A stretch of DNA of 23,137 nucleotides from an uncultured Fibrobacterota bacterium (GCA_963753345.1 CAVWBU010000025.1:1-23137); one strand, 5' to 3'. Shown: positions 4,276-23,137, numbered from the stretch's first letter. A program made the numbers and translations. Notes: generated from the sequence alone by a model not told the origin.

Positions 4276-4340
4276 ACAGGGATGATTATTTGCATGATGT
4301 CAAGAGCAATGGATTAGTCATGCGATGAAGGGGTTAGCCA

Positions 4341-4368
4341 TCCGCATTCCACAATCCGCAATCTGCAA
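4341..4368 (+). repeat. Heptamer tandem array (TCYRCAW x4)
   Basis: tccgcat tccacaa tccgcaa tctgcaa, directly before the terminator hairpin. Confidence 0.75.
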
Positions 4369-4370
4369 TA

Positions 4371-8687: not shown

Positions 8688-8790
8688 TGTAGATTTTAGA
8701 ATGCAGATTGTAGATTGGAAGACAAGGGCGGGATGAAAACGATGAATCCGCATTTGACAATCCGCAATCATCAATCCACAAACCGCAATC
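8687..8790. repeat. Two heptamer arrays in inverted orientation
   Basis: ttgtaga ttttaga atgcaga ttgtaga (8687-8714) and aatccgc atttgac aatccgc aatcatc aatccac aaaccgc aatc (8745-8790). Confidence 0.75.
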
Positions 8791-16600: not shown

Positions 16601-17620
16601 CTCTTTTCCTCGTTCAGCTTGTCAAACGCGTCCGATTTTCTCAGCTGCTTTCCCAGTTCATTTCCCAGTTCCTCGCACGCATTGATGAACGGGCTGGACA
16701 TCGTGCCAGTGCCTGTCGCCGGTGGCTTCCGCAGTCACCGAGAAGGCGGGCTGCCCCGCCGAGGGGGACGCGAAGATGGCGAAGGTCATGCGTATGGTGC
16801 CTTCCTTCTGGCCCATGCGCGCCGGCCTGGTCGAATACGATTCGAGATGCGGCCGCAGGACAATCGCCTTGCAGTCTTTCGCATTGTCAAGAGCAATGCT
16901 CGATGCGGTGTCGGCCCCGTGCCGAAGCTCGCGGCCCAGTTTGCCCGCCATCTTGTTGTACGCTTCCTTCCAGTCGGATTCTTCCATGTCAAACCCGAGC
17001 ATTGTCTTGTCGAACGGGACAAGTTCGATAAACGCCCGGCCGTCGCAGTCGAGACTGCCCGGCGTCGCAGGCTGCGGCTCTTCCTTGCGGGGCTCGGCCC
17101 GGCGCTCGGCTTCTTTCGGGGCGGGCTGCGGCGCGGCCGCCTGCTGGACCTGCTCCGGCTCGCACAGCCTCCGGGCCACGTCGGCAAGGCGGCCCACCAC
17201 CTCCTCAAGGTCGCCCTTCACGTCTTCGGAAACGGTCCTGGAAATCTTTGCGGTCTTGATGTCGATGAGACGGACGTTAAGCAGATACAGCGAGCCCACT
17301 TTTCCGATCGAACCGGACACAAGCTTCTTGACGCCGAGAATTTGCCCCATTTCGATGAGGCAGGATTCGTTGGTGCACGCGCCTGACTGCTGGAAGCCCT
17401 GCTCCTTGAGGATTTCCGCCATCTGCTCGCGTTCCATTACGTCAACCATGCCGGTCTTGAAGAACTCGACGCGGAGCCTGTCGGACAGCAGCTCACATTC
17501 GTCCTTGGTGATCCCCGAGCTGCCGTGAAGGGTCATCACCGCAATGGTTTCCTTGGCCGTCTGGCCGCCGAAAGCCATAAGTGCGAATGAGATGATCACG
17601 AAAACGGATGGATTCTTCAT
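16597..17620 (-). CDS. Secreted CsgG/HfaB-like domain protein; +1 frameshift near 16692
   Basis: Signal peptide MKNPSVFVIISFALMAFG. Motif VMEREQMAEILKEQGFQQSGAC...GQILGVKKLVSGSIGKVG..LNVRLID. Removing one C extends it to ...KLNEEKR*, with an ATGA overlap onto the AAA start. Confidence 0.8.
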
Positions 17621-17843
17621 AGGGCTCTCGCGGATGAAGAAGAAGCGGGAAAAGCCGGACGGTTTCATCCGGTGATGGTGAAAATATACCTTATTATGGG
17701 GGAGAAATCCATGACGCGCAGACGGAGGCAGGCAAAATGAGAGGGGAAAATGATGAACACCACAGATTAAAAAAGAATAGTTACAAAAAGTATTGTGCTG
17801 GTATTCATCTGACAAATAAAAATACCATAGGCTTTGAACGAAC

Positions 17844-17950
17844 ATACCATCTTTGCTTCACAACTGCCGCTCCAAGGGTGCGCGCAAGGGTGTTTCGGTC
17901 TTGCCACAGGCCCAACCACGCTGCACCCCGCGAAGCTCCCAAAGGCATTT
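17844..17950 (-). ncRNA. Candidate structured RNA / dispersed element family B, copy 1
   Basis: 17918-17950 is the exact reverse complement of 23029-23061 (33 nt). Folds into nested stems ATGCC/GGTAT, GCTTCGC/GTGAAGC and GGGTGC/GCACCC. Confidence 0.55.
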
Positions 17951-18018
17951 CTAATAATTGTTGCAATCGATTGCTAGGTGAATGCAATATCAATACACCC
18001 TGGAGAACACCCCTACGG

Positions 18019-19857
18019 TCACTTCTTTCCCATCACCTCCATAATCTTCACCCGAAGCTCCGAAAGCGAAAACGGTTTCTGTATGAATGCCATTACGCCG
18101 AGGTCAAGGATGGTTTTAGCCTCACCGTTAAGACTGTAGCCTGAGGCGAGAAGCGCAATGATGCCGGGATTGATCTCCTTCATTGCAAGGAAAGTGTCCT
18201 TGCCGCTCATTGCCGGCATGACCATGTCGAGGATCACAACGTCGATGTGCTGCCAATCGCTGCGGTAGTATTCAACGGCCTCCTTGCCGTTGCCGAAGAC
18301 CGTGGTCGTGCATCCCAGAACGGTAAGGAGTTTTGCCGAACTTGACAGTACGGAAGGCTCGTCGTCCACGAGGAGAACGCGCGCATTGCACTTTTCAACC
18401 GGCGCGGGTTCCGGCATGGTGGTCGCCGGCGGTACCGCAAACTCCGCATCCAGCACGGGAAAATACAGGTTGAATACCGAACCCCTGCCGGGTTCGCTGT
18501 ACGCGGTGATCGCGCCGTTGTGGCTGCGCACGGTCCCGTACACCGCCGCCAGTCCCATGCCGGTGCCTTTGCTCTGTTCTTTTGTGGTGAAGAACGGTTC
18601 GAAGATGCGGTCAAGCGTGGTTTTATCCATGCCGCACCCTGTGTCGGAAATGCGCAGGCGCAGGTACGGTCCGGGCGTGATTTCGCTGTGCGGCAGCGAT
18701 TTGCAATAGTCGTCGTCGAGGTCCGTGTTATCGGTTGCAAAGGTAAGCTCTCCGCTGTCGGACATTGCGTCGCGGGCGTTGAGCGCGATGTTGAGGAACG
18801 CGCTGTGCAGCTGCGACGGGTCGCCGAGGATCACCGGCCGCTGGGCCGCCAGGGTCTGCTTGACCGTGATGCGTTTGTCGAGAGTGCGTCCGAGCAGCGA
18901 GGCGAGATCGGCGAGGAGCCGGTGAATGTCGACGGGCATCTTGAGCAGGTTGCCTTTACGGGCGAACGCGAGCAATTGGCCAGTGAGGTCTGCAGACCGG
19001 CGGGAACTTGCCATGATGTTCTCGGCGTACTGGCGGATGTCGGAATCTTCCTCTGCCGTGATGCGGATAAGGTCGGCAAAGGCCATGATGCCTGCGAGCT
19101 GGTTGTTGAAATCGTGGGCGATGCCGCCCGCAAGGCGTCCAATGGATTCCAGCTTCTCCGCCTGGCGGAGGCGTTCCTGACTTGACATCAGCGATTGCGT
19201 TCTTTCTTCGACGCGCTGGGCAAGCGAACGGTTGAGTGCGTCCAAGTCCCCATGCGAGCGGGCGCGTGAGGCCTCGAAGTAATATGATATCACGGAAATG
19301 ACAAAGAGGACTGCTCCGAAACGGATCGCATATTCCGACGAATACTTGTGCGTCCACAGCATGATATCGACCAGAAAGATAAGCGCGGCGGTGAAATCGT
19401 AGGCCGCTACTGCGGCAAGGCCCTGGTTGCGTCCCAGGAGAAAGAACGCCACGAGCGGAAACAGCAGACACCACAAGGATACTGTCGGGTGGGGAAACTG
19501 GGTTGCCAGAAGGGCAAGGAATCCAATTCCCGTCAAAGCAACAAAACACACGATGATGAATTCTTCAAGGCGGCGGAACACGGAATTCACGATCAGAATC
19601 GCAAGCAGCCCGACAACGGACAACAGCGACATGAGCGCTATGAAGGTGGCATGGTGCAGCGCGTCCCGGATGCCGAAAAAACCGGATGCAAGAATACCCG
19701 CAGTTAAGGCGACATTGAGGGTCACCCTCCGCATCCGGAGGTCTGTAAAATCAAGACCAACAGGACCGGAATTCTGAACTGCGTCGGCTTCGGAGGTTTT
19801 TTCCGGTTGTGCAGGAAGCGTTTCCTGCAAAGGCATGGTTCCGTTCGTTGGCGGCAT
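18019..19857 (-). CDS. Membrane-bound hybrid sensor histidine kinase / response regulator (CckA-like)
   Basis: Multiple N-terminal TM helices. H-box GIAHDFNN, N-box LNIALNARDAM, DTGCGM, IFEPFFTTK and GTGMGL. Receiver domain LLVDDE, ILDMVMP and KPF. Confidence 0.95.
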   Translation of the reverse strand: MPPTNGTMPLQETLPAQPEKTSEADAVQNSGPVGLDFTDLRMRRVTLNVALTAGILASGFFGIRDALHHATFIALMSLLSVVGLLAILIVNSVFRRLEEFIIVCFVALTGIGFLALLATQFPHPTVSLWCLLFPLVAFFLLGRNQGLAAVAAYDFTAALIFLVDIMLWTHKYSSEYAIRFGAVLFVISVISYYFEASRARSHGDLDALNRSLAQRVEERTQSLMSSQERLRQAEKLESIGRLAGGIAHDFNNQLAGIMAFADLIRITAEEDSDIRQYAENIMASSRRSADLTGQLLAFARKGNLLKMPVDIHRLLADLASLLGRTLDKRITVKQTLAAQRPVILGDPSQLHSAFLNIALNARDAMSDSGELTFATDNTDLDDDYCKSLPHSEITPGPYLRLRISDTGCGMDKTTLDRIFEPFFTTKEQSKGTGMGLAAVYGTVRSHNGAITAYSEPGRGSVFNLYFPVLDAEFAVPPATTMPEPAPVEKCNARVLLVDDEPSVLSSSAKLLTVLGCTTTVFGNGKEAVEYYRSDWQHIDVVILDMVMPAMSGKDTFLAMKEINPGIIALLASGYSLNGEAKTILDLGVMAFIQKPFSLSELRVKIMEVMGKK

Positions 19858-20715: not shown

Positions 20716-21993
20716 TTATTTCGTCACCACGAACGGGGAAGACAGCGTTGCATTATTGCCCCTTATTGACATTAGATAGGTGCCTGTCGACAATCTCGAT
20801 ACTGGAATACTCAGTCTGCCGCTATGAGCCTGAAGTGTGCCTGAATAGATCTTCCTTCCGGCGATATTGACGACATCAACGGTTATTGCGTCATTATTCA
20901 AATCCTGCGGCAACAAAACGGCAATACCTGTTCTGCTGATATCGATTTTGATTCCATTGGCATACGGCTTTGACATTTCCTGCTGCGGGGTAGGATTAAC
21001 TACTGCCAGCATTTCCGAAAGCGGCCTGCGCCAGACACCGGTACCGCCAGCGCCGGCAAAGATGGTGCCGCCGCTTATGGCAAGAGACAAGATTACCGTA
21101 TTCTCGGGAAGGCCGGAATCAACCGCAGTCCAGGTTGCGCCGTTATTGGTGGAAAGAAAAACACCGTCTCCCCAAGTCCCGGCAAAAATCTTGCTTCCGC
21201 TCACAGCAAGACAATTGATCCAAGTGTTCGTGAGGCCGGAATCAACCGCAGTCCAGGTTGCGCCGTTATCGGCGGAAAGGAAAACACCGCCGCCATTGGT
21301 CCCTGCAAAGATATTGTTGCCGCTCACGGCAAATGCGTAGACAGATGCGTTCGTGAGTCCCGTATTGACCGCAGTCCAGCTTGCGCAGTTGTTGCTGGAA
21401 AGGAAAACACCGCCGCCATTGGTTCCTGCAAAGATGTTGTTGCCGCTCACGACGAATGTGTTGACATGGGTATTGGTGAGACCGGCATTGACCGCAGTCC
21501 AGCTTGCGCCGCTGTTGGCGGAAAGAAAAACACCGCCGCCATTGGTCCCTGCAACGACGTTGCCGCCGCTCGCGGCAAGTGCGTGGACATGCGTATTCTT
21601 GAGACCGGCATTGACCGCAGTCCATTTTGCGCCATTGTTGGTGGAAAGAAAAACGCCGCTGCTGTCAGTCCCTGCAAAGATATTGTCGCCGCTCACAGCA
21701 AGAGCGAGGACTTCCGTATCCCTAGTAAGGCCGGAATCAACCGCAGTCCAGATTGCGCCGTTGCTGGAAAGAAAAACGCCGCCGCGACTAGCCCCTGCAA
21801 AAACGTTGCCGCCGTTCACGGCAAGTGTGTAAATGTCTCCACCTTGCGGCGCGTCTGTCTGCACCCATTGAGCACTTGCAGTGAATGTGAACAGGACAAG
21901 CGGCCCTGCACCAAGGATAATGTTCTTCAAGAAGCTTTTCACTAGGAAAGTTTTTGCCCTTCGCATTTCATGTCCGATGGTTGTTTTACTCAT
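20716..21993 (-). CDS. Secreted BNR/Asp-box repeat beta-propeller protein (7 blades) with a T9SS-like C-terminal domain
   Basis: RBS AGGGG before ATG 21993 and signal peptide ending TASA-QW. Seven ~41-aa repeats LAVSG.NIFAGT.GGGVFLS.NNGA.WT.VN.GL. Tail NIAGRKI...LSTGTYLM. Confidence 0.88.
   Translation of the reverse strand: MSKTTIGHEMRRAKTFLVKSFLKNIILGAGPLVLFTFTASAQWVQTDAPQGGDIYTLAVNGGNVFAGASRGGVFLSSNGAIWTAVDSGLTRDTEVLALAVSGDNIFAGTDSSGVFLSTNNGAKWTAVNAGLKNTHVHALAASGGNVVAGTNGGGVFLSANSGASWTAVNAGLTNTHVNTFVVSGNNIFAGTNGGGVFLSSNNCASWTAVNTGLTNASVYAFAVSGNNIFAGTNGGGVFLSADNGATWTAVDSGLTNTWINCLAVSGSKIFAGTWGDGVFLSTNNGATWTAVDSGLPENTVILSLAISGGTIFAGAGGTGVWRRPLSEMLAVVNPTPQQEMSKPYANGIKIDISRTGIAVLLPQDLNNDAITVDVVNIAGRKIYSGTLQAHSGRLSIPVSRLSTGTYLMSIRGNNATLSSPFVVTK
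21030..21850 (-). repeat. Intragenic 123-bp tandem repeat
   Basis: ACCGCAGTCC recurs at 21122, 21245, 21368, 21491, 21614 and 21740 (spacing 123, 123, 123, 123, 126). Confidence 0.9.
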
Positions 21994-22061
21994 GCTTTCC
22001 CCTGGTTTAATATGCGCGTTTTGCGGGTATCGCATTCTAAAAATATGTTCGGTCAACATCT

Positions 22062-22078
22062 TCGGTGTGACTGGATTT
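22062..22078 (-). repeat. 17-bp duplication of the tRNA-Pro 3' end (att-like)
   Basis: TCGGTGTGACTGGATTT is identical to 22216-22232 (T-arm 3' half, acceptor strand and discriminator). Confidence 0.85.
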
Positions 22079-22173
22079 CGCTCCTGGGGCGTAGATGTGG
22101 TCATGGTCGCGTAAGCCTTGGCCTTGCCTGCGGCTTTGAACAAGGCACATCCTCCCGTTCACACCCACCAAAA

Positions 22174-22290: not shown

Positions 22291-22381
22291 ACAAAATTGA
22301 TCCTGTAAAATAGTTTTCGGAAGGACATTCGCGGCAGACAATTTCCTCGGGTGTTGGTCCGGACGCTTCTTTGCGTCGATC

Positions 22382-22954
22382 TCAGCTCTTTGGCACTCGT
22401 CCGACTCTTCTTTTCTCGCTCTCGTCCTTGCTCAGCCTGCACCCGCAGTAATCCTGTCTGTAAAGACCAAGTTCTTTACTCAGCCGGACGCTCTTGAGGA
22501 ACCCGTCGTTTTTCTTGAAATTGAACGGCTCGTACCTTACTCTGAATTCTGCGGCTGCAGCATTTCCGGTCTTGTTAAGCATATCGATGCGCTTGTGCGG
22601 GCTGATGGTCATTACCGTCGTAAAGGCGGGCCAGCCGATGCCTCTGCAGAATTTTGCGGTTTGTCTCAGCCTGAGCAAAAAGCATTGCTCGCACCGCGCG
22701 CCGCCTTCGGGAGTGTGGGAGAAATCCCGAATGGCATTCTCCCAATCCTGTGGAGCGTAAGGGGCCGAGTCGAAAGGCACGCCATAATGGTCTGCAGTAC
22801 GTTTTGCCTCAGCCAGGCGCTTGTCGTATTCCTCCTGCGGCTGGATGTTCGGGTTGCAGAAGAAACAGCGGAGCTCGTATTGCTCGGTGAGGGAATGGAC
22901 GACCCAGGCCTCGTCAGGAGCGCAGCAGATATGGAGGAGGAGGTGAGGTTTCAT
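22382..22954 (-). CDS. queH: Epoxyqueuosine reductase QueH (DUF208)
   Basis: LLLHICCAPD, NPNIQP.EEY, EGGARCEQC..LRL, ISPHK and LYRQDYCGC motifs. Confidence 0.93.
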   Translation of the reverse strand: MKPHLLLHICCAPDEAWVVHSLTEQYELRCFFCNPNIQPQEEYDKRLAEAKRTADHYGVPFDSAPYAPQDWENAIRDFSHTPEGGARCEQCFLLRLRQTAKFCRGIGWPAFTTVMTISPHKRIDMLNKTGNAAAAEFRVRYEPFNFKKNDGFLKSVRLSKELGLYRQDYCGCRLSKDESEKRRVGRVPKS

Positions 22955-23028
22955 GCTATTTGGTTTGTATGTATTGATAATACCATTTGCCAGACATTGA
23001 TTTCTTCAATTAACAATTCAATAAATCA

Positions 23029-23137
23029 AAATGCCTTTGGGAGCTTCGCGGGGTGCAGCGTTCTTTAATCAACATTACGCGCATGCTAAAGTTGCCGCCT
23101 GTGGTGCGCGCGTGTGCGACAAAAACCTGCGTACCTA
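23029..23137 (+). ncRNA. Candidate structured RNA / dispersed element family B, copy 2 (truncated by window end)
   Basis: Begins with the same 33-mer AAATGCCTTTGGGAGCTTCGCGGGGTGCAGCGT. Different interior. Ends in GCGTACCTA, resembling GCGCACCCT of copy 1. Confidence 0.5.

Follow-up and report, generated by a model that had tools for sequence, protein, structure and literature searches.

A structured, uncatalogued intergenic repeat family confined to one genus of Chitinivibrionales (Fibrobacterota)

Several classes of small, multi-copy intergenic elements have been described in bacteria. Those closest to the element analyzed here are the BOX elements of Streptococcus pneumoniae, the Correia repeat enclosed elements (CREE) of Neisseria, the enterobacterial repetitive intergenic consensus (ERIC) sequences or intergenic repeat units (IRU), the repetitive extragenic palindromic (REP) sequences with the bacterial interspersed mosaic elements (BIME) and the REP doublets associated with tyrosine transposases (REPIN-RAYT), the miniature inverted-repeat transposable elements (MITE), and the families of sibling small RNAs (sRNAs). 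The element is represented by two copies in a stretch of 23,137 nucleotides (nt) from an uncultured Fibrobacterota bacterium (GCA_963753345.1, CAVWBU010000025.1:1-23137), hereafter the window, which is the entire contig C25 of a 4.5 Mb, 94% complete genome assembled in 55 contigs (G000, hereafter the own genome). Our preferred, still tentative, reading is a unit bounded by inverted repeats that was dispersed as DNA and whose core is maintained as RNA; we favour it over a purely selfish DNA repeat and consider a regulatory leader, an invertible promoter (inverton) or a micro-protein gene unlikely.

BOX elements, organized as boxA-(boxB)n-boxC, resemble the present family in that they are modular, non-coding, intergenic, multi-copy repeats, 100-300 nt long, that are predicted to fold stably, vary in how many internal modules they contain (here, short and long forms and tandem 5' parts) and occur in either orientation next to unrelated genes. 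However, there is no sequence relationship, and the present element is distinguished by a multi-helix core with GGCAAGNCCG and CUUGGAGCGGCAG that is far better conserved than the ends, by decayed inverted ends, and by its presence in only one Chitinivibrionales genus. Correia elements and ERIC/IRU are likewise small, protein-less intergenic units between inverted repeats, some of which carry outward promoter-like sequence, comparable to GGTATTTTTA in the tail of copy 1. Correia elements possess well-kept terminal repeats and a TA target duplication, whereas in the present family the ends are the least conserved part, no duplication was seen, and the strand-specific core fold has no known counterpart.

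The similarity to REP/BIME and REPIN-RAYT consists in high repetition, structure, intergenic location and a mosaic arrangement with other repeat families. Furthermore, there are REPIN-like doublets in which a B-type element (the second subtype, found in sister species, with the same centre and different outer parts) is followed about 30-55 nt downstream by a weak inverted relative; these occupy three distinct places in four listed rows, at sister-genome loci including L049, L115 and L032, since L115:2618-2726 is the same place as L049:714-822. In contrast to the REP palindrome, which is 20-40 nt long, the present unit spans 207-337 base pairs (bp) with at least five helices, is not accompanied by a PF01797 (Y1/RAYT) match in the 94% complete own genome, and has conserved G.U pairs that favour RNA over a DNA hairpin. 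With respect to MITEs, inverted ends are present but paired at only 60.5%, and filled and empty orthologous sites were found, but neither a consistent target duplication nor, in the own genome, a parent element was. Sibling sRNA families such as Qrr, csRNAs and LhrC share with the present family paralogous loci, a conserved structured core, independence of the neighboring genes and possibly their own promoters, and here orthologous loci are also kept between species. Unlike the known families of that kind, which have far fewer members, this one numbers from 17 to at least 48 copies per genome, and its copies are often truncated or insertion-bearing, have inverted ends and show no called terminator.

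Extent of the family

The 33-mer AAATGCCTTTGGGAGCTTCGCGGGGTGCAGCGT occurs exactly at 17950-17918 (-) and 23029-23061 (+), in agreement with the positions and strands given in an initial sequence-only reading of the window. None of 100 dinucleotide shuffles of the window produced any 33-mer match with up to three mismatches allowed, and the exact inverted match is genuine and far above chance; the inverted repeat around it stretches to 43 nt with 91% identity. In the own genome, 17 matches to the 33-mer were detected at three or fewer mismatches, compared to 0 for the reversed control. A nhmmer search with a profile of the whole unit retrieved 17 full copies, 2 head-only copies (copy 2 of the window and C26:134129-134194) and 2 small fragments, and separate profiles gave 19 matches for the 5' part and 17 for the 3' part; because the latter matches full copies only, the genome contains no orphan 3' half. 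The 17 full copies comprise 8 short and 9 long forms, the long ones with an additional 50-80 nt GC hairpin and A/U-rich tract inserted 3' of the apical domain.

Using BLAST, the element was found in three of the five other species of the genus and in none of 35 genomes from other genera. The covariance model R1 identified it in the own genome and in four of the five congeners (14, at least 48, 9 and 29 matches), with no match in the fifth, 99% complete congener and none in 75 genomes across 32 other genera of the order. The carriers besides the own genome are G001, G002, G004 and G005, and the congener without a match is G003. When 185,579 species genomes were scanned for an exact pattern, 67 loci were obtained, 37 of them in three metagenome-assembled genomes labelled Fibrobacterota, Fibrobacteres or Chitinivibrionales; the remaining 30, which are scattered over unrelated, mostly GC-rich genomes with 1-3 per group, were taken as chance matches without a model check. 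The same pattern yielded 66 loci in metagenome contigs, 37 of which are true members according to the covariance model, whereas viral contigs gave no match to the core pattern and a single match to a second pattern that the covariance model rejected.

Comparison of the whole window with Rfam 15 at the gathering threshold returned tRNA-Pro only. Copy 1, searched at E<=10, gave two chance-level matches of 10-11 bits, and five loci (A-short, A-long, B and G005-type) searched at E<=1 gave nothing on the elements. A sample of titles and abstract openings from the literature under four Chitinivibrionia taxon names contains nothing on repeats or non-coding RNA, and this negative and the Rfam 15 blank are the basis for calling the family undescribed. 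The initial proposal of a dispersed, structured element outside Rfam is borne out by the copy number, the core covariation described below and the blank in Rfam 15: the family is real, structured and uncatalogued.

Core fold, strand bias and conservation gradient

In copy 1 the core fold, delineated by RNAalifold and pair counts, occupies 17855-17936 (-). It consists of P2 (GCTTCGC/GTGAAGC, 17936-17930 with 17861-17855), P3 (GGGTGC/GCACCC, 17928-17923 with 17881-17876), P4a (17921-17919 with 17884-17882) and the apical hairpin TGG-CAAGA-CCG (17906-17896), all on the minus strand; the small, fast-evolving hairpin P5 (17841-17851, -) lies next to it. The three nested stems that had been proposed for copy 1 are all present, with unequal backing: P3 is supported by covariation, P2 shows no two-sided change, and P1 (ATGCC/GGTAT) is weak, with 74.8% of cells paired.

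When 46 cores (16 A-type and 30 B-type) were used as input, RNAalifold recovered P3, P4a, two G.U pairs and the apical hairpin in the form yGG-CAAGN-CCG. Within P3, pair 23-76 is GC in 28 copies, CG in 17 and GU in 1, and pair 24-75 is GC in 40, UA in 4, CG in 1 and AC in 1; P4a reads GCC/GGC instead of GCG/CGC in one sister species. In alignment A3 (73 distinct copies), 95.2% of the cells are paired and two-sided changes occur in 7 of the 14 pairs (44 cells); on each of the five measures, all 500 shuffles fell short, and the slid controls were paired at 30-57%. Among the 24 A-type units, to which the value for P1 also refers, P3 together with P4a is 97.9% paired, P2 93.5% and invariant, and P5 86.5%, with two-sided changes in three of its four pairs at an identity of only 0.68-0.70. 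The outer inverted repeat was rejected as an RNA helix, being 60.5% paired in the same units and free of strand bias. The divergent metagenome variants L197 and L214 keep GGGAGCTTCGC and lack the GTGAAGC partner strand, so that P2 is uncertain beyond the main clade. The conserved unpaired nucleotides of the core are GGCAAGNCCG and CUUGGAGCGGCAG.

Ahead of the B-type copies, the 5' part recurs as one to three tandem "half copies", spaced by about 40-47 nt (L096, L063, L084), each of which can form the local hairpin GCYG-N8-CRGC. A 50-kb stretch of a sister genome contains 8 B-type cores with a total of 16 5' parts, the extra ones being tandem half copies, in mixed orientations relative to the neighboring genes, as in the own genome.

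Two DISCRIMINATING measurements, the strand bias and the conservation gradient, characterize the core relative to the rest of the unit. In the core helices, G.U pairs outnumber A.C juxtapositions by 157 to 11 in alignment A3 and by 105 to 19 in the A-type alignment A2, whereas in the outer inverted repeat the counts are 56 and 53, without strand bias. Because G.U is far above A.C in the core helices, the core appears to be read as a single strand in the first-named orientation; the outer repeat behaves as ordinary double-stranded DNA drifting apart. The contrast of G.U and A.C between core and outer repeat provides a simple, reusable test that separates one-strand folds from inverted repeats at the DNA level.

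The gradient was computed for 10 intact copies and also for all 24 copies. Among the 10 intact copies, identity amounts to 0.95 in the 5' part and 0.94 in the 3' core, to 0.74-0.75 in the ends, head and tail, to 0.68 in P5 and to 0.23-0.34 in the flanks. After a recent transposon burst, identity would be expected to be even along the unit, and after an old one the ends would usually be the best preserved part; given the high identity of the core and the low identity of the ends, selection on the core after dispersal, or possibly gene conversion limited to the core, is suggested.

Mode of spread, possible role and competing explanations

Under the tentatively preferred reading, the unit would once have moved as DNA, much like a miniature transposon, a past spread suggested by the inverted ends, by sites that carry the element in one species but not in another, and by truncated and nested copies. 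The core would now be selected as single-stranded RNA on the first-named strand; a promoter in the AT-rich head would be its likeliest source, and the product would be a small non-coding RNA of about 110-220 nt that acts in trans or binds a protein and does not switch the downstream gene. Transcription of the core from the head is something we infer, as we do the promoter itself, the mode of movement and the RNA role.

The element ends read (T)GTATTGATAT...CACCTGACA and its complement, and in copy 1 the inverted repeat matches at 10 of 14 core positions. Four loci are common to the own genome and G001, all in the same orientation (judged manually from the shared flanks), and at three of the four the form differs, short versus long. 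In G001, the position orthologous to C26:196.7 kb has an element-free spacer of 160 nt where the own genome has 552 nt, and the two spacers do not align; queH lacks the element upstream in G002, G003, G004 and G005, and G005 shows broken synteny around its CsgG-like gene. In the metagenome contig L219, a small hairpin GCGCCC-TTCCTGTT-GGGCGC is inserted in the 5' strand of P3; since the same hairpin is also found inside one long form of the own genome, the units appear to gather nested mini-insertions.

These traces are also in line with purely selfish interspersed DNA of the REP/BIME, ERIC, BOX or MITE-like kind, in which the fold would matter only as single-stranded DNA for a mobilising enzyme, or not at all, and any RNA would come from read-through. 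Dispersed copies in both orientations, inverted-repeat ends, filled and empty sites between species, truncated copies, nested small-hairpin insertions, frequent adjacency to a repeat family with 81 motif matches, and public contigs that break within the 33-mer all fit this explanation. It is nevertheless considered less likely than the preferred reading, because the ends are least and the core most conserved, which reverses what is expected of a transposase-recognised miniature element, because the core shows G.U at 157 against A.C at 11 and P5 shows compensatory change among paralogs, because no target duplication was found, and because no Y1/RAYT, TnpB-type or reverse-transcriptase gene was found in the 94%-complete genome and no neighbor protein family recurs with the element.

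The searches behind these negatives were as follows. No consistent direct repeat that would represent a target-site duplication was found among 24 copies, 15 left and 14 right ends of which were recognised; a pair of candidate repeats of 6 nt is displaced by 3 nt. Searched in the own genome with up to two mismatches, the 14-mer from the inverted ends has 30 matches, 16 inside family elements and 14 scattered ones with two mismatches each, and no longer element with the same ends was found in the own genome, to which this search was limited. In the same genome, PF01797 (Y1/RAYT) had 0 matches at E<=0.001, and RVT_1 and the PF07282 zinc ribbon had 0 matches each, IscB itself not having been searched. 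Clustering of open reading frames (ORFs) at 151 family loci yielded repeat-derived pseudo-ORFs and orthologous duplicates only, with no recurrent transposase or other protein.

Retron non-coding RNA, group II intron RNA and the TnpB/IscB omega RNA were rejected as identities of the element on the same absence of RVT_1 and PF07282 matches, IscB being outside the search. The motif GCGCACCCTT, which may resemble the start of a retron msr, comes with neither a reverse transcriptase nor an Rfam msr match. Integron attC sites were rejected as well. Their core sites are R''/R' (RYYYAAC ... GTTRRRY), and they form cassette arrays beside intI; the present ends are GTATTG... and ...AATAC, the copies are solitary and form no cassette arrays, and a phage-type integrase is found at 1 of 17.

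That integrase is a 431-amino acid (aa) tyrosine recombinase (Phage_int_SAM_4 + Phage_integrase; L007:1610-2905, +, contig C18 of the own genome), the start of which is separated by about 14 nt from the left end of the C18a copy and which reads away from that copy. Together with the inverted repeats of about 25 bp that flank an AT-rich, promoter-like head, a promoter motif that resembles that of Bacteroidota, and head sides that face a divergent gene in 11 of 17 copies, it brings to mind an inverton, that is, recombination sites at the inverted ends and a promoter in the head flipped by a site-specific recombinase. We regard this as very unlikely, given that the ends of single elements match poorly (60.5% of cells overall; 10 of 14 core positions in copy 1), that the four orthologous pairs of G000 and G001 all have the same orientation, and that a recombinase lies beside only one of 17 copies.

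A domain family without Pfam match, of about 160 aa and encoded near three B-type loci, was rejected as a specific partner of the element because it is multi-copy in element-free genomes (10 in G003, 5 in G006, 13 in G007 and 5 in G033). The domain (about 150-190 aa; motifs DPYTGD, VDHxDP and FEICSWIVN), often arranged in tandem within one ORF, occurs in 8 of 41 related genomes with 1-14 matches each, independently of the element; examples are L037:881-1366 (-), L200:1696-2253 (-), L227:1765-2226 (-) and, in G000, C7:15559-16443 and C24:4346-5188.

With regard to promoters, the T-rich -10-like motif GTATATTTTA, which resembles the Bacteroidota-type TAnnTTTG element, is present upstream of tRNA genes in 35 of 49 cases. 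A spacing of 17-18 nt from a preceding TTGACA is frequent, and a position weight matrix (PWM) was built from these 35 regions. Its matches in the family cluster in the tail on the forward strand (alignment column 314; 7 of 24 copies) and in the head on the reverse strand (6 of 24). In copy 1, GGTATTTTTA in the tail (17826-17817, -) fits the motif and is directed at the CsgG-like gene.

Several observations weigh against a unit spread as DNA with a core kept as RNA. On the side of movement, these are the lack of a consistent target duplication, of a longer element with the same ends in the own genome, and the damage seen in many copies, which is what selfish DNA would be expected to show. On the side of transcription, the -35/-10-like hexamers of the head occur in at least two competing registers, AT-rich DNA making such matches cheap; the organism's own PWM gives no consistent forward match in the head, the head of copy 1 is about 12 nt short, no sigma-70-type promoter was called in copy 1, and no terminator-like site was called in 17600-18100. 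On the side of the fold, alignment A3 was fitted to the structure of the model itself, so that its pairing counts are favoured, and many copies are paralogs, so that cells are not independent events. The whole structure evaluated on A-type copies only is no better than shuffles, because the A-type hardly varies, and the folding energy, also no better than shuffles (z-scores of -0.60 for this strand and -0.30 for its complement), is uninformative. Finally, gene conversion limited to the GC-rich core could mimic purifying selection.

A more specific proposal, which we regard as doubtful, is that the core serves as the RNA partner (scaffold, guide or decoy) of a protein system confined to the genus, or is a new self-processing RNA, carried on a miniature mobile unit and then selected at numerous loci, from 17 to over 48 in each genome; if so, a site for binding or catalysis would be formed by the invariant unpaired GGCAAGNCCG and CUUGGAGCGGCAG, the conserved G.U pairs and the swappable apical domain. 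Should the core be a working RNA of any kind, the family would be an undescribed one with a clear, covarying fold, present at dozens of loci in each genome of an uncultured lineage from peat and wetland, and a clean case of a mobile repeat becoming or delivering an RNA gene. If it is selfish DNA only, it still breaks assemblies (public contigs end in the 33-mer and the contig analyzed here ends 76 nt beyond it), creates spurious ORFs and brings promoter-like AT-rich DNA beside gene starts such as that of queH.

The two copies in the window, their neighbors and accompanying repeats

Copy 1 is an intact short form of the A-type, 207 nt in length, at 17790-17996 (-), its ends being set from alignments; nhmmer matches 18001-17765 with E 2.3e-61, and R1 matches 17846-17950 with 91 bits. 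The sequence-only reading had placed the element at 17844-17950; this segment is part of it, and the real unit is larger, bounded by decayed inverted repeats. From 5' to 3', all on the minus strand, the left inverted-repeat end GTATTGATATTGCATTCACCTAGCA (17972-17996; family consensus (T)GTATTGATATAGTATTCACCTGACA) is followed by the AT-rich head (17951-17971), which is about 12 nt below the family consensus (alignment A2, columns 65-103). Next comes the best-conserved segment, the 33-mer or 5' part (17918-17950), which holds the 5' strands of P1, P2, P3 and P4a. Beyond the core and P5, the T-rich tail (17814-17840), which includes GGTATTTTTA, leads to the right inverted-repeat end GTCAGATGAATACCAGCACAATAC (17790-17813).

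A 47-codon ORF (MPLGASRGAAW...) runs across copy 1 at 17806-17948 (-), from the ATG in AAATGCC to the right inverted repeat, and the element might accordingly be taken for a small protein gene. By manual count, 9 of the 15 short-form rows have 43-47 codons and one more has no stop before the row ends; copy 1 has lost one nucleotide and gained another further on, which restores the frame at the end. However, the other five short forms and seven of the nine long forms contain stops or a frameshift (the other two have 64 and 74 codons), the inserts of the long forms are often not a multiple of three, the middle third of copy 1 is in a different frame, and the B-type copies keep the fold without an equivalent ORF or ATG, which makes a protein-coding function the least credible of the explanations considered. 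The start of the longest ORF of the CsgG-like gene (16658-17845) falls inside the element, and annotation pipelines may for this reason mis-start that gene or call a spurious peptide.

On the two sides of copy 1 are the gene for a MASE6-HisKA-HATPase-REC hybrid kinase (18022-19857, -), identified by Pfam, the end of which lies 22 nt from the left end of the element, and that for a weakly matching CsgG/LpoB-like lipoprotein (16661-17668, -; Pfam). The element points at the latter gene, ending about 120 nt before its first in-frame ATG (17668). This placement, together with the conserved multi-helix core, and the capacity of the 5' part to form an alternative local hairpin, in which a C in column 18 accompanies a G in column 29 in seven of eight B-type copies (manual reading), is compatible with a cis-acting leader with riboswitch-like control of the CsgG-like gene, the AAA gene and the genes that follow.

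Across the family, this reading finds no support. According to a manual reading of a crude ORF list for the 17 full copies, 11 have a divergent and 6 a co-oriented gene next to the head, about 8 face a convergent gene beyond the tail, convergent genes enclose 2 of the copies, and the downstream genes are unrelated to one another; neighbors and orientations look random. In G005, the ortholog of the CsgG-like gene (62% identity) lacks the element and keeps GGTATATTTT just upstream, and a motif of the GGTATATTTT type is present in the window at 17690-17680 (-), between element and gene. This motif is the tRNA-type -10-like element GTATATTTTA, so that the operon probably has a promoter of its own, and there is no support for cis-regulation by copy 1. 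No terminator-like expression platform was called, and copy 2 has no 3' strands at all. The link to the CsgG/AAA/Eet operon that had been suggested from the position of copy 1 is not upheld, and a leader function is very unlikely. At 17690-17680 the tRNA-type motif of the CsgG-like gene takes the form GGTATATTTTC, and the one ahead of tRNA-Pro (22301-22320, -) reads CTATTTTACAGG.

Copy 2 (22971-23061, +) is a head-only remnant, reduced to its left end, AT-rich head and 33-mer; it is matched by the 5'-part hidden Markov model, not by the 3'-part model. The gene for QueH (22385-22954, -; Pfam) starts 16 nt from its left end. The copy sits 76 nt from the contig end, and no other contig of the assembly overlaps the last 15-31 nt of the window. 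In public peat-metagenome contigs, depth rises from about 11 to 474 over the 33-mer, and contigs of single-copy depth (1175-1551 nt) begin at 23032-23037, inside the 33-mer, and extend beyond 23137. The 1216-nt metagenome contig L219 (Ga0209039_10103805), orthologous to 22695-23137 of the window, has the same queH, the same head and the same start of the 33-mer, followed by a complete A-type element, and about 45 nt past the right end of this element TTCTTTAGTAAACATCCCGCGCATGCTAAAGTTGCCG... matches the window from 23062. Because in L219 the full element precedes the same flank, copy 2 is the remnant of a deletion of about 245 bp, which removed everything 3' of ...GTGCAGCG(T), the right end included.

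It follows that 23062-23137 (+) is unique flank that begins, in L219, beyond the right end of the element. The different, longer interior that the first reading saw in copy 2 is thus ordinary flanking DNA, and so is the GCGTACC that it took for a similar element sequence; the GTGAAGC-like continuation forecast past 23137 does not materialize, since the orthologous L219 identifies the sequence after the 33-mer as flank. Copy 2 lacks the 3' strand, an outcome that the first reading had itself named as contrary to its proposal, and does not count as a second intact member. An origin of 23062-23137 from the 3' terminus of the gene located upstream of queH in the sisters was rejected, the translated tail being unlike the C-termini of those genes. 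Promoter capture, suggested by an ATG 5-22 nt after both head-only copies, was dropped for copy 2 once the deletion had been shown; at the other head-only copy, C26:134129-134194, there is a 229-aa ORF without Pfam match.

The element adds to a picture in which the intergenic space of Chitinivibrionales is built of several unrelated structured repeat families. A separate GC-rich multi-hairpin repeat, GGGCGCCCCGCNGC-ttcg-GCNGCGGCGGCC..., has 81 motif matches in the own genome (e.g., on C4, C6 and C16; L010:1210-1260); it often adjoins the element, and B-type elements in a sister genome are frequently found directly against its end. Two very small hairpin modules, GCGCCC-TTCCTGTT-GGGCGC and ACCCC-TTCG-GGGT plus CTTCCAAGGGTCG, are inserted at varied places in different repeat families, at L012 (C40 copy), L007 and L013 (C18a and C47 copies) and L219, and look like nested mini-insertions. 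Heptamer-like tandem tracts, ATCCGCAAT/AATCTACA, lie in intergenic regions beside other repeats at 4340-4369 and 8746-8789 of the window and at L010:1150-1200. Within coding sequence, five tandem 123-nt (41-codon) repeats with 65-82% identity occupy 21101-21838 in a 475-aa ORF (20716-22143, -), the product of which is a repeat protein.

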